The notes beneath the pieces were generated by a model. The model was not told where the DNA came from. It worked only from the letters and a program-made list of their open reading frames with translations, and made no database searches. Made by a program: the position numbers and the translations under genes. DNA of 64,000 nt from an uncultured Flavobacteriaceae bacterium (GTDB taxonomy: Bacteria > Bacteroidota > Bacteroidia > Flavobacteriales > Flavobacteriaceae): positions 43,156 through 107,155 of the forward strand of contig CALOEQ010000016.1 of assembly GCA_942492425.1 (NCBI GenBank). The letters are read 5' to 3'. Positions 43,116 through 61,079 of the stretch are shown piece by piece. Each line of letters opens with the position of its first letter. Within the stretch, counting starts at the first letter, position 1.

Positions 43116-43254
43116 TTTTAATTTAACTCTTGTTTTTCAGAAATATAGCAAATGCCATACCGCTTTGAAATCAGGTACAAAGTGACGCATTAATTGACAT
43201 TCTGTCGGTCACCAAAGTTACAGTGTATTCTAAACTGAGGGTTCCTGAGGCGCT

Positions 43255-50123: not shown

Positions 50124-50378
50124 TCAGGCAGCGGATGAAGTTCGCCTCCAGTTTCGATAAAGTAGATAGGAAGCCACGGCCACAACGATATAAGGAAAGG
50201 CCATCAGGTAAACAATGCCCGAGTTGATGCCCTCAGCGATTTCTTCCCCGCCCTGCTCCACCACGGCCCGGCACATGGCACATTGAGCCCTCAAGGATTC
50301 GGACTGAAGAAACAACATCCCGGCAAGGAGCGTCCAGCCTCTTTTCTTTAGCCTGAGAATTTGGAATTTAGAGCGCAT
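50124..50378 (-). CDS. Small membrane protein with AQCAMC motif, last gene of the cox assembly operon
   Basis: Signal-like N-terminus, QCAMCRAVVE, GINSGIVYLMAFPY TM segment. Confidence 0.75.
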   Translation of the reverse strand: MRSKFQILRLKKRGWTLLAGMLFLQSESLRAQCAMCRAVVEQGGEEIAEGINSGIVYLMAFPYIVVAVASYLLYRNWRRTSSAA

Positions 50379-50454
50379 TCTGACCCGATTGAAAATACAT
50401 TTGCAAAAATAACCCATGTTTTGGGCATGACCAAAGATTCATTCGAATTGAAAT

Positions 50455-50967
50455 CTAGTAGTAGGGCGAGATCATTAAATAAACAATCACACCGGTAATG
50501 GTGACATACAACCAAATCGGAAAAGTGATCCTGGCTATTTTCTTGTGACGCTCGACATCACGCGTTATTCCGCGTACAAAGGTGATCAGAACGAAGGGAA
50601 TGACTACGATCGAGAGCAGGATATGAGAAATAAGCACAAAAAAGTAAACCCAGCGAATTATCCCTTCACCCCCGAATGAAGTGGAGTCCGACGTCATATG
50701 ATACAAGACATAAAGGATCAGGAAAACCGCGGAGAGCACCATACAGGCCTTGACCAGGTTCTCGTGAAGGTCAATCTTCTTTTTCTTGATCGCCCAAAAG
50801 GCAAGCAGAAGCAAAACCGAGGTCACGGCATTGATACCCGCATAGATCGGCGGTAGAAAAACAGGTAGATCCAGGTCAATTTTCACTCCAAAAAGCGCTG
50901 CCACCACCAGGGGTATGGCAATAGACAGAATCGTGATCAGCTTGTTGTATTTCTTGGCGTCTTCCAT
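50455..50967 (-). CDS. DUF420 family membrane protein
   Basis: Four TM helices, FLILYVLYH, LISHILLS, HKKIARITFPIWLYVTITGV. Confidence 0.9.
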   Translation of the reverse strand: MEDAKKYNKLITILSIAIPLVVAALFGVKIDLDLPVFLPPIYAGINAVTSVLLLLAFWAIKKKKIDLHENLVKACMVLSAVFLILYVLYHMTSDSTSFGGEGIIRWVYFFVLISHILLSIVVIPFVLITFVRGITRDVERHKKIARITFPIWLYVTITGVIVYLMISPYY

Positions 50968-50974
50968 AATTTCT

Positions 50975-51610
50975 TTATTCTTTCAGTAAGACAGCAATAT
51001 CCTCCTTGAGCCATTCCACCTCCTTGGGATCCAACCCATTGTAAAACTTGATGGGATTCACCATATCGCCATTCTTAACCGTTCTGGAGCGAATGTATCC
51101 TTGCTTGTCAATGAGTGCAAAAAGACCGGAGTGCTCGAAGCCCCCCTCGACGTCCTTGTTCTCTCCCGCATAGAGTTTGAAGCCGTTGTTCGAAAAGTTG
51201 TAAATGGAATCCTTCTCTCCCGTCAAAAAGTACCAGTTCTTTAGCGTTGCCCCTTTCTTGCTCGCGTATTGCTTCAAAACGGCAGGCGTGTCTCTTTTGG
51301 GATCGATGCTGATCGAAGCAATCCCGAACTCGGGGTTGCCGTAAAACTCCTTCTGCAGCTTCAACATGCTCTCGTGCATCTTCGGACAGATCGTCGGACA
51401 GGAAGTGAAGAAAAACTCAACCACGTAAACCTTGCCCTCAAAATTCTTCTGGCTGACTGTCACGGAATCCTGGCTGATAAACTCAAACGAGGGAACCTTT
51501 TCAAAGGTCATCAATTCTGTGCCTTGCAACCGGTCAATAATTTTCGGTATGGCCCAGATCCCAAAGATCAGGATGACAAAGGCTACCGCGATGTAGGAAT
51601 TCTTTTTCAA
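50975..51610 (-). CDS. SCO1/SenC family copper chaperone
   Basis: FFFTSCPTICP (CxxxC), SIDPKRDT, FEHSG; TTG start. Confidence 0.95.
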   Translation of the reverse strand: MKKNSYIAVAFVILIFGIWAIPKIIDRLQGTELMTFEKVPSFEFISQDSVTVSQKNFEGKVYVVEFFFTSCPTICPKMHESMLKLQKEFYGNPEFGIASISIDPKRDTPAVLKQYASKKGATLKNWYFLTGEKDSIYNFSNNGFKLYAGENKDVEGGFEHSGLFALIDKQGYIRSRTVKNGDMVNPIKFYNGLDPKEVEWLKEDIAVLLKE

Positions 51611-51615
51611 CTTTT

Positions 51616-52275
51616 TTAAATCTGTCTTTTGTTCTTCTTCAGGGCAAGCCGGTCTTCCGCGACGACAACTTTCACATCATCGACCATTTCCTGGTGGACG
51701 GTGGAAATCGACTCGGCATTGTACCCGTAGCGCATCCCGTCCGGCATCTCATCATCTTCTGACCTGCCTCGCAGATTCATGTCGCGATCAATGATGAATG
51801 CATTTTGGGTGTACAGCTTTTCATCCAGGGAAATATTGGTTTGAAGACTTTCGAACAGGTTTCTCACCTGGCTTTCCGAACCGAATAGAAAGTGCCATTC
51901 GCTCACGTCGTAGGTTGCTCCCAACTCCTTTTTCAGCTGCTCGGCATCGGCCTCAGAACCTTCCGGCAGGACCACAACAAACTGAAACCCTTTGAAGCCA
52001 TAGAAATGTTTGTAAATCTTTTCGTTCAGGTTGAGCGCATTGGTTTTGTGCTTCAAGGGTTCCCGCCCCAGGAAACACATAATATTGATGTTGCCATCAA
52101 GACTGACCGAATCTGAACCCGTATCTGAGCGAAACTCCTTGACGTCGTCAACTCCGGTAGTGAGTACCGGCAACTTCGCAAAGTTATTGGTTCCTGTCAG
52201 CAGGAAAATATAGAACAACAGGGGTCCGAAGAAAAGGATGGACAAGATTACCGTATTTCGTCCCGGTTTTGCCAT
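51616..52275 (-). CDS. SCO-like/thioredoxin-fold membrane-anchored protein lacking CxxxC
   Basis: N-terminal TM; WHFLFG, FIIDRD.NLRG and Y.. pattern parallel to SCO proteins; only one Cys. Confidence 0.65.
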   Translation of the reverse strand: MAKPGRNTVILSILFFGPLLFYIFLLTGTNNFAKLPVLTTGVDDVKEFRSDTGSDSVSLDGNINIMCFLGREPLKHKTNALNLNEKIYKHFYGFKGFQFVVVLPEGSEADAEQLKKELGATYDVSEWHFLFGSESQVRNLFESLQTNISLDEKLYTQNAFIIDRDMNLRGRSEDDEMPDGMRYGYNAESISTVHQEMVDDVKVVVAEDRLALKKNKRQI

Positions 52276-52336
52276 TATTGAAGATAAAAAAAGTGTTTTG
52301 AACACTCAAAACACTTGTTATACTTTATTCGATGCA

Positions 52337-52690
52337 TCAATTGTATGACCAACGCAACCACTGCTGATCGATCGCTCCCAGGGAGCCTCCTTCATAAAGC
52401 AAGAAGAAGGAGAGATATCCAATAAGGAATACTACCGTCCAAACGATTGCCCTTCTCAACCAGGTCACCTCATCTTTCAGGTGCATGAAATACCAGGCAA
52501 TGCCATAAGCCTTAACCAGGGTCAGGATCAGGAAGATCCAGTTCAGCAAGCTCGTACCAAGCACGTTTGACAGGTGCAGCGCAGCGGGCTTATAGATCCC
52601 CAGAACAACTTCAACGATAGTTACAACCGAAAGAAATCCGAAGACTTTCCAAATCAATACAGCGTGTGAATGTGAATGTTCGTTCGACAT
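52337..52690 (-). CDS. Cytochrome c oxidase subunit IV family (caa3-type)
   Basis: Three TM helices, LTLVKAYGIAWYFMHLKDE. Confidence 0.88.
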   Translation of the reverse strand: MSNEHSHSHAVLIWKVFGFLSVVTIVEVVLGIYKPAALHLSNVLGTSLLNWIFLILTLVKAYGIAWYFMHLKDEVTWLRRAIVWTVVFLIGYLSFFLLYEGGSLGAIDQQWLRWSYN

Positions 52691-52707
52691 ATGCTACTCT
52701 TAAAGGT

Positions 52708-53685
52708 TTAAATCAGATAGAAGAATGTGAATACAAATACCCAGACCAGGTCGACAAAGTGCCAGTACAGACCTACTTTCTCAACCATTTCATAATGTCC
52801 TCGTCGCTCGTAGGTTCCGATGATCACGTTGAAAAAGATGATCACATTGATCACGATTCCGGAGAATACGTGAAACCCGTGAAACCCTGTTATAAAGAAG
52901 AAGAAATCGGCAAAAAGCGTCTTTCCGTATTCATTTTCGGTGAGATTGGCTCCCTCCACAACGCGAACGGCCTTATCCAGGAATTTATTGGCTTCTTCCC
53001 TGGAAACGATTGTCTTTTCTTTGGTTTCGAGATTGATCAGCTCGGTTCGCAATGCGATGTCAGGATTGTTTGCGAACCCTTCCTTGACCTGCTGCAAAGT
53101 GACAGATGGCAGAGTCGCTTCTTCCACGAACCAAAGCCCGTTGTGCTTCTCGTGCTGCACCCGCTCGGAAGCAGCATTCGATGCAAAGCTTTGAAGCGTC
53201 ACCTGGTGACCCGAGGCATCCACAAACTGAACGATCTTGCCGTCTTCCAGCTGCAGGGCACCGTAACTTCCGTTGATGAAGGTTTTCCACTCCCAGGCCT
53301 GCGAGCCCACGAAGATCAAACCTCCTATGATGGTCAATCCCATGTAAACAATGACCTTGTTCTTCTGCATCAATTTACCGGCATCAACCGCCAATACCAT
53401 GGTCACAGAGGAAAAAATCAGGATGAATGTCATGAAGGCCACATAGTACATCGGGTAGTCACCATGAATAAAAGGAATGTGGGTAAATACCTCATCCGCA
53501 ATCGGCCAGGAGTCCAGGTACTTGAATCGAATCAATCCATAGGCACCCAAAAAACCCGAAAAAGTGAGGGCATCTGACATGATGAAGAACCACATCATCA
53601 TTTTTCCATAACTGGCGTCAAAAGGTCGGTTTCCGCCTCCGCTCCAAACTCCACCTTTCGGTGTATCAGCAACTACTGCCTCCAT
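52708..53685 (-). CDS. Heme-copper oxidase subunit III-like protein (larger part)
   Basis: GKMMMWFFIMSD, TFILIFSSVTM, FFITGFHGFHV, GLYWHFVDLVWVFVF. Confidence 0.93.
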   Translation of the reverse strand: MEAVVADTPKGGVWSGGGNRPFDASYGKMMMWFFIMSDALTFSGFLGAYGLIRFKYLDSWPIADEVFTHIPFIHGDYPMYYVAFMTFILIFSSVTMVLAVDAGKLMQKNKVIVYMGLTIIGGLIFVGSQAWEWKTFINGSYGALQLEDGKIVQFVDASGHQVTLQSFASNAASERVQHEKHNGLWFVEEATLPSVTLQQVKEGFANNPDIALRTELINLETKEKTIVSREEANKFLDKAVRVVEGANLTENEYGKTLFADFFFFITGFHGFHVFSGIVINVIIFFNVIIGTYERRGHYEMVEKVGLYWHFVDLVWVFVFTFFYLI

Positions 53686-53815
53686 TTACTGTAAAAAGTT
53701 TAGTTTAAATGATCTTCTTGACTACAAAAAAACTGATATAAGTCATGTTTTTTCTTAAGCAGCAAAAATATAAAAATTATTCATATGTCTTGTCAAACCT
53801 GAAAAAATGTTCCCC

Positions 53816-54382
53816 TTAACGGATAAAAAAGAAAAAGAGAAAAAGATAGATCCAGAGCGCGTCGACAAAGTGCCAAAATATGGCACCGAGAGTAAAACCC
53901 AAATGATCCTCAACCGTGTAGCGATGCTGCAAATTTTTGTAAATGACACGGATCAAGACGATTATCCCTGCAAAGATGTGCAACAAGTGCGCCCCTGTGA
54001 TCACGTACAAAAACGAAGAAGCCACATTGCTCTCCGGACCCGTCGTGTACAATCCTGCCTCGATGAGCTGGTTGAATCCGTTGAATTGATAGAAGACAAA
54101 GGCCAGGCCCAAAACCAGGGTCAGGCCCAGAAACAAGTTGGATCTGGAGTGATCTCCAGAAAGCAGGGATCGCCTGGCCAGGACAAAAGACACGCTGCTC
54201 AAAAGAATCAGGATCGTGCTGAGGTAAAAAGCGGAGGGCAGCTCAAAGCTCACCCAGTCTTCTCTTGCCCGGCTGACAACATAGGCGCTGGTCAGTCCGG
54301 CAAACATCATGGTCATGCTGATCATGGAGATCCAGAGCATCTGTTTGAAAGTCCTTTCCTTAACTTTTTGTTCCATTTGCAT
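53816..54382 (-). CDS. Heme-copper oxidase subunit III-like protein (second part)
   Basis: MMFAGLTSAY, TILILLSS, TGAHLLH, FWHFVDALWIYLF. Confidence 0.92.
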   Translation of the reverse strand: MQMEQKVKERTFKQMLWISMISMTMMFAGLTSAYVVSRAREDWVSFELPSAFYLSTILILLSSVSFVLARRSLLSGDHSRSNLFLGLTLVLGLAFVFYQFNGFNQLIEAGLYTTGPESNVASSFLYVITGAHLLHIFAGIIVLIRVIYKNLQHRYTVEDHLGFTLGAIFWHFVDALWIYLFLFFFFIR

Positions 54383-55266
54383 CAGTGAAAGAATTTGTCG
54401 ATCACAAAAATAATTTGGATCGCGGTTATATATAAAACACTGGCCAGCATCAGTTTTCGCGCCATCACGTTGGTCTGTTCGCGGTGGAGTTTAACCCCGT
54501 ACCAAAGCATCACAAGACCCAGTCCAAAAATGAGTACCGCCGAAAGTGGCAGCAGGTAGAGGCTTCCTGTGATCCTGAAAACCGGGATCACGGAGACCAC
54601 CAGCATGAAAATCGTATACAAGATGATCAGACGCGTCGCTTTTTTATTCTTTTCGCCGGTAGGCATCAAATTGAAGCCCGCCTTTTTGTATTCGTCGAAT
54701 TGCAGCCAGCCAATGGCCCAAAAATGGGGAAACTGCCAGAAGAACTGGATCATGAAGAGCATGCCCGGCTCAATGCCAAACTGACCCGTGGCCGCGACCC
54801 AGCCCAGCATAAAAGGAATGGCTCCGGGAATGGCACCCACAAAAACCGAAAGCGGCGTGATCGGCTTCAAAGGCGTGTAAGCCGAGGTATACAGAAATAT
54901 CGAAACCGATCCGAACAGCGCGGTGCGTTCGTTGATCCCGTAGAGGATGATCACCCCGAGCAAAGTCAGGGCAACTGCGATGACCATCGCGACATTGACT
55001 GAAATCCGGCCGGCCGGAATGGGCCGGTTCATCGTTCTTTTCATCAAAGCGTCCGGGCCGCGTTCAATGATCTGGTTGAAGGCATTCGAGGCCCCAACCA
55101 TGCAGTACCCACCGACAGCCAGCAAAACAAGTATTTTCCAATCGATCTGATCGGCTGCCAGCAAATATCCCGCTATGGAGGAAAAAACCACGCTGACAGA
55201 CAGACCGAACTTGGTCAGCTGTTTGAGATCATCCAGAATGTTGTACTGTAAAACTGCGGTTTTCAA
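54382..55266 (-). CDS. cyoE: Heme o synthase (protoheme IX farnesyltransferase)
   Basis: NQIIER..DALMKRT.NRPIPAGR, YTPLKP, GAIPGA, FWQFPHFWAI. TTG start at 55266 inferred because a TATATTTG -7 element (55297-55304) overlaps the track start. Confidence 0.96.
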   Translation of the reverse strand: MKTAVLQYNILDDLKQLTKFGLSVSVVFSSIAGYLLAADQIDWKILVLLAVGGYCMVGASNAFNQIIERGPDALMKRTMNRPIPAGRISVNVAMVIAVALTLLGVIILYGINERTALFGSVSIFLYTSAYTPLKPITPLSVFVGAIPGAIPFMLGWVAATGQFGIEPGMLFMIQFFWQFPHFWAIGWLQFDEYKKAGFNLMPTGEKNKKATRLIILYTIFMLVVSVIPVFRITGSLYLLPLSAVLIFGLGLVMLWYGVKLHREQTNVMARKLMLASVLYITAIQIIFVIDKFFH

Positions 55267-55381
55267 GATACTATCGCCCTCTTTCTTAAATCGCTGCAAA
55301 TATATCCATTAATTGAGATTCGCACCCACTTAAAAGCCAAAAAAATCTACCTAAAATACTTTGCGATTTCTTAAAATGTAT

Positions 55382-55443: not shown

Positions 55444-55515
55444 GCGAAAGTAGCTCAGGGGTAGAGCATCACCTTGCCAAGGTGAGGGTCGCGGGTTCAA
55501 ATCCCGTCTTTCGCT
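55444..55515 (+). tRNA. tRNA-Gly (GCC)
   Basis: Acceptor GCGAAAG/CTTTCGC, anticodon arm TCACC-TTGCCAA-GGTGA, T-loop GGTTCAAATCC; CCA not encoded. Confidence 0.97.
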
Positions 55516-55574
55516 CATAGAGATCAGATGATTATATGATTGATTTTCATCTTTTTGAAAGAAGATAGCGACCC

Positions 55575-55662: not shown

Positions 55663-55748
55663 GCTCGGATGGTGGAATTGGTAGACACGTTGGACTTAAA
55701 ATCCAATGGACAGCAATGTCCGTGCGGGTTCAAGTCCCGCTCCGAGTA
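55663..55748 (+). tRNA. tRNA-Leu (TAA)
   Basis: Acceptor GCTCGGA/TCCGAGT, anticodon arm TTGGA-CTTAAAA-TCCAA, long variable arm, GGTTCAAGTCC. Confidence 0.97.
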
Positions 55749-55754
55749 CAAATG

Positions 55755-55830: not shown

Positions 55831-55915
55831 AAAACAAAAAACCCGGGCCGCGTAGCGCCCAGGTCTTTTTTCTCAGCTTGTTCGGACGGGACTCAGCGAA
55901 GCTAATTCCCGCATT
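55831..55915. repeat. Left copy of the island-flanking repeat (degenerate inverted copy of tRNA-Leu 3' end plus terminator)
   Basis: 55854-55915 is identical to 61525-61586 (62 bp); block-wise reverse complement of 55723-55791. Confidence 0.92.
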
Positions 55916-56188: not shown

Positions 56189-57139
56189 TTATACTTGTCG
56201 TTCAAATGACTCATCAATAATACCTCTCAAATGCTCGAGTAATTCCGGTGAAGGTGTTTGGTAATCCTGCAATTCGTACACCTTGCCCAAAAACTCATAT
56301 TTACCAAGACCAAATCGGTGATAAGGAAGCAACTCATAATCAATCACGTTTTTATAAGGTTTGATAAACTCCAGAACAGCGCGGACATGTCCTTCGTCCG
56401 CATTAATACCGGGTATTAGGGGTGTGCGAGTGATAAATTCCGTATTGGGAAATTTCTCATATGCTTTTTTGAAATTTTCAAGTAGCCGTTCATTACCTAC
56501 GCCCGTCCACTTTTTGTGGCGATTCGAATCCATCAATTTATTATCGTGTAGCATTAAATCAACATAAAGTAAAACTTTCTCCATGTATTCCCAGGGCACA
56601 TTTCCGGCTGTTTCAATGGCTGTATGAATGCCGCTTTCTTGAGCTCCGCGCAAAATGGCTGCAGTAAAATCGGGTTGCAACAGACACTCTCCGCCACTAA
56701 TGGTCACTCCACCACCGGTATTGCGGTACATGCTTTCGTCTTTTAATGCTTCGTCAAGCACTTCGCGTGCAGTCATTAATTTACCGAACATACCTATTGC
56801 TCCGGTAGGGCACAATTCTGCCAATTCTTCCGTACATGAGTTGGCTAAATCCCAGTTCGCTTTTACTTTATCATCATCATCTCCTTCTGATACATAAAAT
56901 GCTCCTTTGGGAAATGGTTCTTTAAGACAAACACCGCATTCTGCTGCTCCTTTGCAGAGTTTTCGACTAAAATCCAGTTCTGGTTTTGGTTTGATACTTT
57001 CGGGGTTGCTGCACCATTTGCAACGCAGGGAGCATCCTTTCACGAATACAGTGGTTCGGGTTCCGGGTCCGTCTTCTCCGCAGTATCGCTGAATATTCAG
57101 CACGCGTCCTGTTATATCTAAATAGTTTTGATCTTCCAT
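56189..57139 (-). CDS. Glycyl-radical enzyme activating protein (radical SAM, with ferredoxin-like insert)
   Basis: DGPGTRTTVFVKGCSLRCKWCSNPES (CxxxCxxC), insert CKGAAECGVC...CPTGA, GGVTISGGEC, HTAIETAG, ELLPYHRFG..KY. Confidence 0.96.
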   Translation of the reverse strand: MEDQNYLDITGRVLNIQRYCGEDGPGTRTTVFVKGCSLRCKWCSNPESIKPKPELDFSRKLCKGAAECGVCLKEPFPKGAFYVSEGDDDDKVKANWDLANSCTEELAELCPTGAIGMFGKLMTAREVLDEALKDESMYRNTGGGVTISGGECLLQPDFTAAILRGAQESGIHTAIETAGNVPWEYMEKVLLYVDLMLHDNKLMDSNRHKKWTGVGNERLLENFKKAYEKFPNTEFITRTPLIPGINADEGHVRAVLEFIKPYKNVIDYELLPYHRFGLGKYEFLGKVYELQDYQTPSPELLEHLRGIIDESFERQV

Positions 57140-57149
57140 GATTCTCGTA

Positions 57150-58301
57150 TTAAGCTCCTGTGTAAATTCCCAATGCCCGTGCTACTCTCATAAATTCATT
57201 ATCTGTGCTCACGGTGCGTTTTTTATTCAGCGCATCAATTAGCGGTACAAAGTCAATATGAGGCGGTACAAATGCCGCCAAGGTGCCAAACTTGTTATCC
57301 TCAAGCGCTTTTACAGAAGCAGCACCATAGGCCAGTCCCAGTTGACGGTCAACCGCTGTGGCCTCACCGCCACGAGTCCACGGACCGAGCACCAGTGGAA
57401 AAACCTCATCTGACATTAACTGTTGCAAAGCATTCGCCAGTGTTTTGGCTGCTTTCCCGCTCTTGTTGATGACAAATTCATTACTTTCTTCTGTAGCCAG
57501 CGGGGACAGCGCCTTTTTCAAATCGTCAAGGGTATCACTTGTAACTCCGGGAAGATTTGTGAACGAACTCCCTTCTGCAACCACCACGAGGGCATAAGAG
57601 TGATCAGACGTAATCCTGGATTGAAGTTGTTTCGCAAGTTTATTTACATCACATGGGAATTCGGGCAATACGACTGCATCAGACAAGACAGCAATGCCGC
57701 TTTGCAATGCCAACCAGCCAGCCTGTGATCCAAGGACTTCAACGATCCCGATTTTTTTTGATGAAATGGCTCCTTGTTTCGCCCTGTCGAGCATTTCGAT
57801 ACTAAAGCTAAGGGCAGTATTGAAACCAAAAGCCACAGCAGTGGACGCCATATCATTTTCAACCGTTCTTGGAATGCATATTGATTGCAAACCCTTGAGG
57901 TTCAATTTGTGCAGGATACTTAATCCCCTACCCATCATGATGGCGATTACCGCATCGATTTTTTCTTTTTTCAGATTTTCCAGAAGGGTATCAGACATGT
58001 CCACTTCTTCCACCATTTCCAGCTCGTTTATGGTCCGTACATTGAAGGGGTCGACAGTTGCTGCTGTACCCATGACATCGCTCCCCGTTGGGTTTAGTTT
58101 TTCTATGATATCAGGCCCCAGGTCAATTAATCCATCGTTCGGATATTTTTCAGGAAAGAGCAACCCTTCGAAACCGTCAAGTATACCTACTACTTCCCAA
58201 CCTGCTTTGTGTGCTGAAATAGCAGCTCCCATAATCATGGAATTGATGCCGGGAGTATACCCTTCCCCAATGGCGATAGCTATTTTCTTTATGGTTTTCA
58301 T
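57150..58301 (-). CDS. 6-phosphofructokinase-fold protein with degenerate catalytic motifs
   Basis: Collinear with PfkA group III (PG.N, G..DGFEGL, P.T.END, GF.TA, EV.G..AGWLAL, VVAEG, RGG..TA.DR.L), but GGD, GGDG, TIDND and MGR are altered. Confidence 0.85.
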   Translation of the reverse strand: MKTIKKIAIAIGEGYTPGINSMIMGAAISAHKAGWEVVGILDGFEGLLFPEKYPNDGLIDLGPDIIEKLNPTGSDVMGTAATVDPFNVRTINELEMVEEVDMSDTLLENLKKEKIDAVIAIMMGRGLSILHKLNLKGLQSICIPRTVENDMASTAVAFGFNTALSFSIEMLDRAKQGAISSKKIGIVEVLGSQAGWLALQSGIAVLSDAVVLPEFPCDVNKLAKQLQSRITSDHSYALVVVAEGSSFTNLPGVTSDTLDDLKKALSPLATEESNEFVINKSGKAAKTLANALQQLMSDEVFPLVLGPWTRGGEATAVDRQLGLAYGAASVKALEDNKFGTLAAFVPPHIDFVPLIDALNKKRTVSTDNEFMRVARALGIYTGA

Positions 58302-58324: not shown

Positions 58325-58362
58325 AAAGATACAGTCGAGGGAAAACCCTCGACTGTATCTTT
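58325..58362. other. Perfect 17-bp intergenic hairpin directly after the GRE stop
   Basis: AAAGATACAGTCGAGGG-AAAA-CCCTCGACTGTATCTTT. Confidence 0.9.
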
Positions 58363-58367
58363 TGATT

Positions 58368-60842
58368 CTATTTAAATGTTTGCAACGTACGCTCAATGAC
58401 TTCGTTCTGAACGCCCACATCAAGTTTGGTAAAGAAGGCACTGAAACCGGCTACACGAACCACAAGGTCTCTGTAATTCTCAGGATGCTTCTGTGCATCT
58501 CTAAGCATATCGGTATCCAGACAGTTGAACTGAATGTGATAGCCGCCATTGTCGAACAAGGTTTTTACCAGACCCAAAATTTGATCTCTACCTTTTCGTG
58601 ATTTCAATTGGTCGGGTTGAACTTTCATGTTCATATGTGTGGCCGTCCATCTTACAGGATCGCCACCCATGGCAGCCGACATCACCAAAGCAGTTGGTCC
58701 ATTCACATCTGTACCTGGCATGGCCGACAGGCTGCCATCGGTAAGTGCCTGTCCGGCTTTTTTACCGGTAGGCAATGCACCGGTCACTTTACCCATCAGG
58801 TTGTGGATACTCTTGGTGTATTGGTCGAGTGATGTTTTGTACAGCTCGTCCTTACCGAGATAATTACCTCCGCCATCTACACTGTTGAAGGTATCCAGGA
58901 TACTATCATTGACTCTTCTCACCATCATATCCGCTTCATGGATATTATTTCCATACTTAGGCGCATCCACATACACCATCTTATGAACACGCTCATGCTC
59001 TCCTTCAAAGTTGGCGGCCAGTGCTGCCATTAATTCTTTCCAGCTCAGTTTCTTTTTATCGTATATCAAGTCCTTGACAGCCATTAAGCCATTCGCAGCA
59101 TCCACCTGTCCTACGGAGATTTGGGCTATGGTATAGTAGTTGGCCCCACCATGCCACACATCCAAACCGGATTCAAGGCAACCAATAGTCAGGCAAGAAC
59201 GCCACGTTGCAGGCAGGTATTCTGCCGCCAGCATACTGGCAATCCATGCTCCTCTACGAAGTACATCTTCACAGTATTGCAGTTGTTTTTCAAAGGCGGC
59301 ATACACATCCTCAAACGTTTTAAATGTTTCAGGATTGCCTGTTTTGGGACCTACCTGCTTTTGGGTACGCGGATCAAATCCATCGTTCAATGTTAATTCC
59401 AGTACTTTACCCAAATTTGGCTGACCTTCCACGGGGTGTCCGGTCTCGTAAGGAATATAGCTGCCCACACAGGCGCCTATACAGGTACGTCTGGCTTTTT
59501 CAAGCGACAACTTACCTGCTTTTGATTCAGGCCAGTTGTATAAGGCCCGTTTCACCATGGCCTCACCACTCACAAACTGCGGCATACCGATACCGGTGCC
59601 TATGACATCCAATACTTTCTCCAGCAACTTGCCGGGAGTTTTTGGCGTATGGCACAGCGTCAATGGCGGCTGCGGCAAGTGCAGATAATTGCTGGCATCG
59701 AGAATTACAAAGTCCATTTCGGCATGGGCATGCTCGCCATTTATATCATAACCTCCCAAGGTAATACTTTGTCCAAGGTCGGCCGAATTTTGCAATGCAA
59801 CCTTCTCTCCAAAGTAATAGCCGATCTCATTGAGTTTAAGAATCAGGTTTCTGAACATGAAGGTGGCATCCTCATAGGTAATCAGCCCGGCTTCTTTATC
59901 GCGCTGATAAAAGGGCTCCAGGTTTTGACCCAGGTACGCTTCAGAATATCCACAACCCACCTGTTCCATTTCGGCTATGATGTGGCAGAAGAAGTGTGCC
60001 TGCATGGCTTCACGTAGGTTTCGGGCCGGGTGCTCAGGAACACGCTCACAGGTTTCGGCCAGCGAAATCAATTCAGCTTTACGTGTTGGATTTGTTTCCT
60101 TTTCTGCCATTTCGCGCGCTTTTGCCGCATAGCGGTTAGCATAGCGCACAATGGCCTTCATGGTAATTAATGAGGCTTCATAGAAATAAAATTTCTCCTT
60201 GTTTGGCAAACGCATATCCAACTCATACATGCGTTCTTCCACATATTTAATCATACTGCCGAGGCCTTCATTATAAACCTTGGGGTAATTGAGGTTACCG
60301 CCACCTGCCGGCCAGTCAAAGAAGCTAATTACATAGCCTGAATCATAAATCGGTTTCGGATCAACGCCATAACGTTTTTCGTAAATTTCCAGAACCCGTG
60401 GTACCTGCGAACGTTCTGTCCAGTAGTCGAGCACCCATTGGTTGGCTTCCCGTTCTTCGGGTGTTTTTGAGTTTTCGATGGTGTTCTCTTCAATCATCCA
60501 GCCTACCTGCCATTCGGGGTAGGTGTAGATGGCATTGAGTGAGCCCGCCATAGCGCCAACCAGCAAGTTGTCGTCAATGTAAATCTTTTTGGTGTCGAGC
60601 AATTCTGCATTGAATTTGGCCCTGCGGATAATGTTGGGATAACCCTCAGTTTCCTGATACACCTTTTTCATGACGATCACTCGCTCAAAATCAATGGGAG
60701 GAGGTGTACTTCTCATCAATTCTTTGAGTACATCAATACGTTCATCGCTCGCATTCACTTTGGCTGTGCCTGCGTAAGGCTTGCCTTCTAATTTGCGTCC
60801 CGGCAATGTATAATATGGAATACCTGTTTCTGTAGTTTTCAT
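58368..60842 (-). CDS. Glycyl radical enzyme (PFL2/decarboxylase-type superfamily member, uncharacterised subclass)
   Basis: C-terminal GGYHIQFN...LRDAQKHPENYRDLVVRVAGFSAFF (Gly799), QSITLGG, LPQP, Cys loop CIGACVGS (Cys458), TDGSLSAMPGTDVNGPTA. Confidence 0.96.
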   Translation of the reverse strand: MKTTETGIPYYTLPGRKLEGKPYAGTAKVNASDERIDVLKELMRSTPPPIDFERVIVMKKVYQETEGYPNIIRRAKFNAELLDTKKIYIDDNLLVGAMAGSLNAIYTYPEWQVGWMIEENTIENSKTPEEREANQWVLDYWTERSQVPRVLEIYEKRYGVDPKPIYDSGYVISFFDWPAGGGNLNYPKVYNEGLGSMIKYVEERMYELDMRLPNKEKFYFYEASLITMKAIVRYANRYAAKAREMAEKETNPTRKAELISLAETCERVPEHPARNLREAMQAHFFCHIIAEMEQVGCGYSEAYLGQNLEPFYQRDKEAGLITYEDATFMFRNLILKLNEIGYYFGEKVALQNSADLGQSITLGGYDINGEHAHAEMDFVILDASNYLHLPQPPLTLCHTPKTPGKLLEKVLDVIGTGIGMPQFVSGEAMVKRALYNWPESKAGKLSLEKARRTCIGACVGSYIPYETGHPVEGQPNLGKVLELTLNDGFDPRTQKQVGPKTGNPETFKTFEDVYAAFEKQLQYCEDVLRRGAWIASMLAAEYLPATWRSCLTIGCLESGLDVWHGGANYYTIAQISVGQVDAANGLMAVKDLIYDKKKLSWKELMAALAANFEGEHERVHKMVYVDAPKYGNNIHEADMMVRRVNDSILDTFNSVDGGGNYLGKDELYKTSLDQYTKSIHNLMGKVTGALPTGKKAGQALTDGSLSAMPGTDVNGPTALVMSAAMGGDPVRWTATHMNMKVQPDQLKSRKGRDQILGLVKTLFDNGGYHIQFNCLDTDMLRDAQKHPENYRDLVVRVAGFSAFFTKLDVGVQNEVIERTLQTFK

Positions 60843-60887: not shown

Positions 60888-61079
60888 CTAAGCGCGAACT
60901 GTCAGCCAAGGCACCAGCGACTTTCGGCAGTTTGGCCATGGTGTGCTTTCAGCCGGTGTAGTTCTCATAATTTCTTTTAAGGTGTCAATGCAAGCAGTAT
61001 CTGCGTTTACTTTTGCTTTAGAAATCTTTTTCGGACGAGCAACTAAACCTGCTTCTAAATTTTGATCTTTTTATGTCAT
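60888..61079 (-). pseudogene. Remnant of a second, diverged glycyl radical enzyme gene
   Basis: ATG-ACA-TAA, then an open frame containing AKVNADTACIDTLKEIMRTTP, 14/21 identical to GRE residues 27-47 (AKVNASDERIDVLKELMRSTP). Confidence 0.7.

Follow-up and report, generated by a model that had tools for sequence, protein, structure and literature searches.

A phosphofructokinase-like protein lacking the ATP/Mg and catalytic residues of phosphofructokinase is encoded between a glycyl radical enzyme and its activase

In a 64,000-nt stretch of DNA from an uncultured Flavobacteriaceae bacterium (hereafter the window: positions 43,156 to 107,155 of the forward strand of contig CALOEQ010000016.1, GenBank assembly GCA_942492425.1), we found a three-gene cassette in which a protein resembling 6-phosphofructokinase (PFK) is encoded between a glycyl radical enzyme (GRE) and the radical SAM activating enzyme, or activase (AE), that would install its radical. 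The three genes are co-directional on the minus strand, with the PFK-like gene in the middle, and the AE gene starts 10 nt after the PFK-like stop codon. In the order of transcription, the cassette and the features bearing on it are as follows.

60888-61052, minus strand: relic of the 5' end of another GRE allele, non-coding, directly upstream of the present GRE start
58368-60842, minus strand: GRE, 824 amino acids (aa), with PFL-like and Gly_radical domains (Pfam)
58325-58362, minus strand: hairpin in the 66-nt spacer between the GRE and PFK-like genes, with a perfect 17-bp stem and a TTTT loop
57150-58301, minus strand: PFK-like open reading frame (ORF), 383 aa, ATG start, zero internal stops, full-length PFK fold
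56189-57139, minus strand: AE (radical SAM GRE activase), 316 aa, with CSLRCKWC and a ferredoxin-like insert

The window carries the hallmarks of a GRE/AE system, namely an RVAGFS glycyl loop, a GACVGS cysteine loop and the CSLRCKWC motif of the AE. The GRE matched the Pfam PFL-like and Gly_radical models with 459 and 90 bits, but fell under every NCBIfam equivalog cut-off, the best being HypD (461 against 1100). The AE passed the cut-off of TIGR02494 (309 bits against 174), and its closest specific NCBIfam model was HpsH (NF048010; 329 bits against a cut-off of 430). The closest relatives of the window are uncultured Flavobacteriaceae metagenome-assembled genomes (MAGs) and Eudoraea, and in Flavobacteriaceae the cassette consists of the GRE, PFK-like and AE genes alone, with no further pathway genes.

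The order GRE, PFK-like, AE was kept in all of the approximately 80 related loci (numbered with the prefix L) that had enough flanking DNA, from at least 10 phyla or classes, and the linkage was the same in searches that started from the PFK-like protein and in those that started from the GRE. The former yielded L001-L003 and loci from GTDB species-representative genomes, of which 60 of 60 had the same order and strand by tblastn; their hosts include Flavobacteriaceae (among them Eudoraea adriatica DSM 19308), Bacteroidales, Chloroflexia, Acidobacteriota, Calditrichia, Ignavibacteriota, delta-proteobacteria, Pirellulales, Balneolaceae and Alcaligenaceae. Two more loci seeded in this way (L066 and L067) had the same order. 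The GRE-seeded search returned 13 metagenome loci, and a PFK-like gene came next in all 11 that had downstream DNA, one of these being decayed; long contigs with a GRE about 71-74% identical to that of the window (L081-L083) again showed the same gene order. Among the degenerate PFK-like proteins whose context was examined, there was no free-standing copy of glycolytic type, and all lay between a GRE and an AE. These locus searches reach fairly close relatives only, and many of the MAG contigs are frameshifted.

The decayed cassette is at L077 (787-909), where the 3' end of the GRE gene is intact, the PFK-like gene is a 41-codon remnant and unrelated genes follow. A GRE-PFK fusion, P0179 (PFL, Gly_radical and PFK domains), was considered as a Rosetta stone and rejected: its contig, L086, is riddled with frameshifts and its GRE is split into 522 and 507 aa. 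The split GRE of L003 (299 and 98 aa) proved to be an artefact, and tblastn recovers the full GRE. A 264-aa PFL-like ORF before the PFK-like protein P0125 (L065) is a fragment on a 2.9-kb contig, 29% identical to GRE residues 466-649, and is not interpretable.

The PFK-like protein matched the Pfam PFK family (PF00365) with 185 bits over residues 6-333, covering profile positions 1-277 of 277. An AF2 model (pLDDT 77.8) superposed on E. coli PfkA (1pfk_A) in Foldseek with a TMt of 0.81 and an E value of 1.7e-24; structure prediction confirmed the fold and added little else. Scores on the NCBIfam PFK models were all under the cut-off (TIGR02483, 220 against 430; PRK03202, 197 against 253; PFKA_ATP, 136 against 371; pyrophosphate (PPi)-dependent PFK models, at most 75 against cut-offs of at least 550) and, PRK03202 excepted, were no more than about half of it.

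In PfkA, D103 and D129 bind Mg, D127 is the base, and R72 and R171 stabilise the transition state, while R162, R252 and E222 hold the 6-phosphate and hydroxyls of fructose 6-phosphate (F6P). We located these motifs by aligning the protein to solved PFKs with HMMER and to E. coli PfkA with MAFFT. A first-pass annotation, made by a model from the DNA letters and translated ORFs, had listed a concerted set of motif changes in an unbroken frame that kept AEG, and every one of these changes was recovered, with no stops. In the window, SGGD has become GEGY, RGGTFLG has become TGSDVMG, IGGDGS has become IMMGRGL, PGTIDND or PKTIDND has become PRTVEND (D127E), EVMGR has become EVLGS (R171S) and LGHIQRGG has become LGPWTRGG (H249P), with R162K, R243F and R72T as further changes from E. 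coli PfkA. The nucleotide pocket carries Y for D12, E for G10 (Ala in the family), I for G108 and C for G121. Across the degenerate family, GGDG is replaced by (V/M)(G/M)G(R/Q/K) and GGD by G-aromatic. HMMER and MAFFT differ in the D103 column, one placing it at R125 and the other at G124, and GGDG is destroyed under both.

What is retained is N128, D129, E222 (within AEG), R252 and a Lys or Arg at 124 and 162. In the F6P clamp, K183 (R162 of PfkA), R310 (R252) and E243 (E222) appear from the alignments to be kept, whereas R243 is replaced by F or Y and H249 by P or Q; four of the six phosphate-contacting Arg or His residues are replaced. Since these are the residues with catalytic roles in PfkA, the Mg ligand, the ATP pocket, the transition-state arginines and half of the 6-phosphate clamp are gone, and the base D127 is now Glu. 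The changes of Gly to A, V, M, C or I would be expected to fill the nucleotide pocket.

The protein has two Cys in total and no Fe-S cluster motif. One of the two, C142 (codon ~57876-57878), replaces Gly121 of PFK, and R362 (codon ~57216-57218) is newly fixed in all three degenerate groups defined below. Cys was found at 142 in 167 of 167 orthologues, 21 of 21 paralogues and 111 of 116 members of a second branch; the canonical PFKs carry Gly at this site. Q293 is another new invariant residue of the PFK-like proteins.

A working ATP- or PPi-dependent 6-phosphofructokinase, present in the operon by happenstance, would account for the full-length PF00365 match, for the public naming of homologues as '6-phosphofructokinase' and for the conservation of D129, N128, E222, R252 and K/R124. 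It is highly improbable, given that D103, G104, G108, D12, R171, R243 and H249 are lost and D127 is Glu at positions where 30 canonical relatives are invariant, that most model scores reach half of the NCBIfam cut-off at best, and that linkage to the GRE and AE genes is universal. The first-pass annotation had also judged that the protein is not a working PFK, and the replacement of the Mg/ATP motif, the base and most of the phosphate contacts in the sequence argues the same way.

We found the same degenerate pattern across a large family. A word-index search returned more than 120 proteins at 56% identity or above, from Bacteroidota, Chloroflexota, Acidobacteriota, Proteobacteria and others, and identity across phyla was 55-57%. 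In an exhaustive library of representatives at 50% identity, full-length members at or above about 36% identity to the window protein were degenerate, as were P0154, P0167 and P0209 at lower identity; below about 36%, nearly all else was canonical PFK (GGGDxPGLN / IGGDGS / PKTIDND / EVMGR / LGHLQRGG). We compared 167 orthologues, 21 in-cluster paralogues and 116 second-branch members with 30 canonical relatives sampled from hits of about 30-36% identity. All degenerate groups had in common an aromatic residue for D12, V for G101, G or N for D103, R, Q or S for G104, S for T125, E for D127, E or Q for R171, F or Y for R243, P or Q for H249, C for G121 and the invariant R362. As these derived states recur in more than 300 homologues, and the 30 canonical relatives are invariant at the same positions, the pattern is not one of chance. 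The degenerate clade was monophyletic with respect to canonical PFKs in 30 of 30 neighbour-joining bootstraps and, as judged from this tree, is of single origin.

The motif changes first noted in the window are thus present, but several of them vary among orthologues. D127E was found in 160 of 167, seven keeping Asp; AQG stands in place of AEG in 26 of 167; E13 of the window is atypical, with Ala in 95% of orthologues; R171 is replaced by S, A, E or Q; and R72, which is T in the window, is Arg in only 44% of the family. 'GRG' and 'AEG' were considered as fixed new motifs and were ruled out in the wider set, where position 125 is R, Q, K, H, L, V or D and position 243 is E or Q (PFK-like numbering). 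Several of the altered motifs therefore look like relaxed positions and not like a new fixed catalytic set.

Behind the AE gene, 25-30 loci (for example, L012, L023, L028, L035 and L069) have one or two more PFK-like paralogues, likewise degenerate. These fall into two classes, with the motifs VVGNQGL/PKSIEND/EVIGE or GSGFVPGTN/PRSIEND/EVPGE, share about 50% identity with the primary copy, and hint at hetero-oligomers or at several ligand specificities.

The PFK-like gene is clearly maintained under strong purifying selection. Its dN/dS against eight relatives was 0.06-0.10 (Nei-Gojobori), with dN 0.050, dS 0.508 and omega 0.098 for the least saturated pair; the corresponding values were 0.084 for the GRE and 0.03-0.04 for the AE. 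At 107 positions conservation was 98% or more among 119 PFK-like sequences, and the reading frame was intact in all clean assemblies. A decaying, functionless remnant would fit the loss of the gene at L077, but is of almost negligible probability in the face of a dN/dS of about 0.08, intact frames, 55-57% identity across phyla and more than 100 invariant positions. The working-PFK and relic readings are effectively excluded. Purifying selection had been proposed as a check on the idea that the protein is retained for another job tied to the GRE/activase pair; the dN/dS range bears that idea out, as does linkage in both search directions. Together, these results make it very probable that the PFK-like protein is an obligate component of a GRE system and not a PFK.

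We then considered with which of its two partners the PFK-like protein is associated. The gap between the PFK-like and AE genes was between -22 and 13 nt in 48 of 48 loci, often with a 1- or 4-nt overlap, and the spacer between the GRE and PFK-like genes had a median of 99 nt across 53 loci. A strong hairpin lay right after the GRE stop codon in nearly all of these 53 loci (clear stems of about 9-17 bp; median z -5.5 against shuffled sequences), that of the window having a dG of -31.3 and a z of -10.9. The sequence of this hairpin is lineage-specific and its structure is kept, some copies having a U-rich tail. Its role is probably to end part of the transcripts or to stabilise an mRNA 3' end, which would set GRE output apart from that of the PFK-like protein and AE and so fix the GRE:AE ratio. 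This would follow the usual logic of GRE operons, as in pflB/pflA, where a hairpin follows the gene for the abundant GRE and the AE is low.

The PFK-like protein also diverges with the AE and not with the GRE. In a Mantel test on pairwise distances among 33 clean loci, r was 0.80 between PFK-like protein and AE and 0.47 between PFK-like protein and GRE; the partial r with the AE given the GRE was 0.73, while that with the GRE given the AE was 0.04. Within the window, the GRE is 94% identical to those of L004 and L067 (dS 0.46), whereas the PFK-like protein is only 82% and 69% identical (dS >1.4), and dS towards these two loci is far lower for the GRE gene than for the PFK-like and AE genes. 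The relic at 60888-61052, common to L067 and L050, reads KAKVNADTACIDTLKEIMRTTPAE, compared with TAKVNASDERIDVLKELMRSTPPP in the GRE. The relic of a GRE allele and the low dS of the GRE gene together imply that the GRE gene was replaced by recombination, while the PFK-like and AE genes stayed in place.

These observations bear on whether the PFK-like protein could be a stoichiometric structural subunit of the GRE, stabilising it or gating access to the Gly loop, like the small subunits of HPAD, BSS and MASS. The position of its gene between those for the GRE and AE is the same as in hpdB-hpdC-hpdA, and its co-occurrence with the GRE is obligate. Accessory subunits that regulate radical formation have been documented in X-succinate synthases (PMC13450708; in part also PMC12590467). 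However, the conserved hairpin after the GRE gene and the tight coupling to the AE gene speak against 1:1 production, the partial correlation with the GRE all but vanishes once the AE is accounted for, and the GRE gene has been exchanged without its PFK-like partner. A protein of 383 aa without an Fe-S motif is, moreover, unlike all known GRE small subunits (PMC13450708), and we regard a structural subunit of this kind as unlikely.

A sister branch of PFK-like proteins (P0130-like), 37-39% identical to that of the window and with the motifs GGGYVPGLA / IVGGHAL / PKSAEND / EVPGQ, was found with a different GRE. Its genes lie at the following positions.

L085, 9001-10221: sister-branch PFK-like gene, Halioglobus MAG
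L084, 9001-10170: sister-branch PFK-like gene, long metagenomic contig
L064, 80-1255: sister-branch PFK-like gene

The gene lies between GRE and AE genes in L085 and L084, and before the AE gene in L064; for further members, the annotated source is Burkholderiales MAGs. The accompanying GRE is 29% identical to that of the window, has the motif GCMES, in which the Glu at two residues past the catalytic Cys is preserved, and scored 993 bits against a cut-off of 1000 on the model of HpsG, the 2,3-dihydroxypropane-1-sulfonate (DHPS) sulfolyase/dehydratase; the AE scored 378 against 430 on HpsH. Between the window and L085, identity was 51% for the AE, 39% for the PFK-like protein and 29% for the GRE. 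Neighbours in this HpsG-like branch are MFS transporters, a PF03601 protein (a family that we take to be putative sulfate exporters), SDR, CMD and BKACE. The suggestion that such PFK-like proteins co-occur with this GRE subclass thus stood in all loci with enough flank, but the PFK-like partner is not restricted to the subclass of the window GRE. Taking the AE-linked distances and the GRE swap together with this second GRE clade, a module of AE and PFK-like protein is the most economical reading of the distances and of the sharing between two clades.

The GRE clade of the window has features of its own. In the window the motifs are RVAGFS, QVGCGYS (~284-290), GACVGS (472-477) and YTKSIH (~680-686), and GACVGS, RVAGFS, Q(V/I)GCGYS and YTKS(I/V)H were present in 120 of 120 GRE homologues at 70% identity or above. 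Compared with GDH (1r8w) and HypD (6vxc), the Glu base two residues after the catalytic Cys is replaced by Gly, His164 by Gly and His281 by Cys, and YTKSIH places a Lys in an active-site strand. In other phyla, recurrent neighbours of the cassette are a ferredoxin-domain protein (32 loci), LuxR or sigma-54 regulators with PAS/GAF sensors, SBF-family transporters, a cytoplasmic SsuA-like protein, MetK, SulP and rhodanese. A fusion of CoA-disulfide reductase (CoADR) and rhodanese lies directly upstream of the GRE gene in three distant lineages (L066, 5645-7390; L081, 7253-8947; L083, 7269-8963). Genes for rhodanese, SsuA-like, SBF and SulP proteins accompany this fusion. The window has none of these recurrent neighbours. 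The neighbourhoods elsewhere suggest organosulfur chemistry.

We hypothesize that the PFK-like protein would be made in activase-like, that is low, amounts and would act with the activase at the point where the glycyl radical is installed or withheld. Its remnant sugar-phosphate pocket may accommodate a small anion. The sulfur- and sulfonate-rich neighbourhoods of related loci make a polyol carrying a sulfonate or phosphate group a plausible ligand, the substrate of the GRE itself being one example, and activation could thereby be coupled to substrate or metabolic state. Low expression, physical partnership with the AE and ligand gating are what we infer. At its broadest, the best explanation overall is that a non-kinase protein of PfkA fold serves as a third GRE component and works with the activase, probably by binding an anion; on the sequence evidence at hand, we hold this to be slightly short of evenly balanced. 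An activase-linked, ligand-gated accessory role may be put forward tentatively. A more specific version, in which the protein is an obligate cofactor of the activase, a metabolite-gated co-activase or gatekeeper that controls the timing of glycyl-radical installation or removal and senses a metabolite with a sulfonate or phosphate group in its remnant F6P pocket, as part of a portable AE and PFK-like module used with at least two GREs, including a Glu-less clade with probable organosulfur chemistry, is possible but doubtful; if true, it would add a new regulatory layer for glycyl radical enzymes. The first-pass annotation had offered roles ranging from a sensor, regulatory or scaffold subunit of the GRE/activase pair to a kinase for a substrate feeding the GRE; a regulatory partner of the pair is consistent with the present data, which favour the activase side over a GRE subunit or a GRE-feeding kinase.

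Several observations weigh against an activase-side role. Tight physical linkage by itself can produce both the packing of the genes and the correlated distances, and we know of no GRE activase that needs a protein cofactor of the PFK-like kind. In L084 the GRE and PFK-like genes are separated by two transporter genes, and the gap between the PFK-like and AE genes is 81 nt. Low confidence in the AF2 model coincides with the former catalytic loops (residues 147-162 and 306-311). Positions 148 (E/D) and 150 (D/E) vary among orthologues, as do 125 and 243 in the manner described above, and such active-site variation fits relaxed constraint and weakens the case for a precise ligand pocket. Finally, the paralogues that follow the AE gene in 25-30 loci are not predicted by a model in which the protein is a helper of the AE.

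The same pocket could instead belong to a re-purposed pathway enzyme that carries out a reaction independent of ATP on the anionic substrate or product of the GRE, in a remodelled cleft formed by C142, K/R145, S146, E148, N149, D150, K/R183, E243 and R310. Examples would be the isomerisation or epimerisation of sulfonated or phosphorylated polyols, transfer from a non-ATP donor, or the capture of released sulfite. A polar set of residues in the former F6P cleft is conserved in all three degenerate groups, there are the new invariants C142, R362 and Q293, and the neighbourhoods are of sulfonate and sulfur type (SsuA-like, SulP, SBF, rhodanese, CoADR-rhodanese, PF03601 and the HpsG-like GRE). 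SqiK, a PfkA-family enzyme acting on a sulfosugar, is a precedent (PMC9594981). We nevertheless consider an enzyme of this kind rather unlikely. One protein family serves two GRE clades that are 29% identical and have different companion enzymes, the Flavobacteriaceae cassette comes without other pathway genes, and the putative catalytic positions vary (E/D, D/E, E/Q and R/Q/K/H/L/V). C142 may simply fill the Gly cavity of the ATP pocket, and expression, judging from gene layout, would be grouped with that of the low-abundance AE and not with that of the GRE.

Other features surround the cassette in the window.

60894-60908, minus strand: sigma-54-like -24/-12 element TGGCTGACAGTTCGC (TGGC-N7-TCGC), 52 nt upstream of the GRE ATG, weak candidate promoter
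55836-55869, minus strand: terminator-like hairpin, 13 pairs followed by T6, about 320 nt past the AE stop codon, from a consensus scan only
55444-55516 and 55663-55749, plus strand: tRNA-Gly(GCC) and tRNA-Leu(TAA), shortly past the AE gene and flanked by terminator-like hairpins
50124-55299: heme O synthase, cytochrome c oxidase subunits and SCO-like genes (aerobic respiration)

The sigma-54-like element is kept in the window, L067, L050 and L037, and in L066 and L083 the cassette has genes for PAS/GAF-containing sigma-54 activators upstream of it. As a promoter it was demoted to a weak candidate, the loose pattern occurring at chance level in the window (7 found against 6.3 expected). Hits in a sigma-70 promoter scan were at chance expectation, in a scan that does not cover Bacteroidota promoters. 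An Rfam scan of 54-64 kb at E <= 1 returned only the two tRNAs and a sub-threshold Leu leader, with no riboswitch upstream of the GRE gene. The hairpin at 55836-55869 is a possible end of the operon. In the relatives L001, L004 and L048, metK follows the AE gene in place of the tRNAs of the window. The aerobic-respiration genes adjoin the operon of an oxygen-sensitive GRE, and the host is evidently not a strict anaerobe.

GRE systems are regarded as having two components, GRE and AE, with small Fe-S subunits in a few families. A conserved third component of kinase fold, occurring with two GRE clades and across at least 10 phyla or classes (60 or more species-level genomes), would change how such systems are reconstituted in vitro, where activation of these GREs with the AE alone may fail, and it would open a testable question on the control of radical installation. 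The GACVGS clade of GREs is large and uncharacterised and is probably tied to environmental sulfur or sulfonate cycling; its cultured hosts, Eudoraea adriatica DSM 19308 and Flavihumibacter profundi, make genetics possible. Hundreds of PFK-like proteins carry the label '6-phosphofructokinase', with the result that metabolic reconstructions from MAGs will wrongly credit their hosts with a glycolytic PFK. The family also offers a clean natural case of a pseudo-enzyme from central metabolism recruited into a radical-enzyme system.

The first-pass annotation had proposed that the cassette represents an undescribed system. In the literature, including a GRE review of June 2026 and the HpsGH papers, we found no mention of a PFK-like GRE partner, within coverage that is thin on subscription journals and where absence is no proof; a three-component GRE system with a PFK-like partner is thus one for which we found no description. 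The GRE accessory subunits in the literature (HPAD gamma, BSS beta/gamma and MASS beta/gamma/delta) are small HiPIP- or rubredoxin-like Fe-S or Fe proteins made with the GRE (PMC13450708). The PFK-like protein resembles them in being encoded by an extra gene inside a GRE operon, in the position seen in hpdBCA, but differs in having a 383-aa Rossmann-type kinase fold without metal-cluster motifs and in being coupled to the AE.

The HpsGH loci of Bilophila and Desulfovibrio (DHPS sulfolyase) have been reported as two-component systems, arranged as hpsGHKLM and without a PFK-like gene (PMC13335735). The likeness here lies in HpsH being the best specific model for the window AE and in the sister branch having an HpsG-like GRE; the window GRE, in contrast, is 29% identical to that HpsG-like GRE and is without the Glu two residues after the catalytic Cys. 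SqiK is a PfkA-family (PF00365) sulfofructose kinase of the sulfo-EMP2 pathway (PMC9594981). It is an example of a PfkA fold that has come to accept a sulfonate where PFKs take the 6-phosphate, and its setting, too, is sulfonate metabolism. By its description, SqiK is an active ATP kinase that works with an isomerase and the aldolase SqiA, whereas the ATP site of the PFK-like protein is gone; no aldolase or isomerase was found in the cassette or among the recurrent neighbour clusters.

By descent, the 'mixed' PfkA group (TIGR02483) is closest, the nearest solved structures being those of the PPi-PFK of Ca. Prometheoarchaeum syntrophicum (9cir/9cis/44xa). The PFK-like protein has in common with this group the whole fold (TMt 0.67-0.81), the NPF/DPF insertion, an insert of about 40 residues after AEG, a Lys or Arg at 124 (Lys in PPi-type PFKs), N128, D129, E222 and R252. 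It differs in that the ATP/PPi-Mg site, the base and the transition-state arginines are replaced, and it forms a separate clade. Non-catalytic PFK folds whose ligand binding has been put to regulation are known from plant PPi-PFK (its alpha subunit) and from eukaryotic PFK-1 (its C-terminal half); they act alongside a catalytic PFK subunit or domain and, with the GRE accessory subunits, are the nearest functional analogies. No other PFK was found within the window, and the extra paralogues in related loci are all degenerate too. Unlike the plant alpha subunit and the PFK-1 half, then, the PFK-like protein described here has no catalytic PFK in its locus, and its partners are a GRE and a radical SAM AE.

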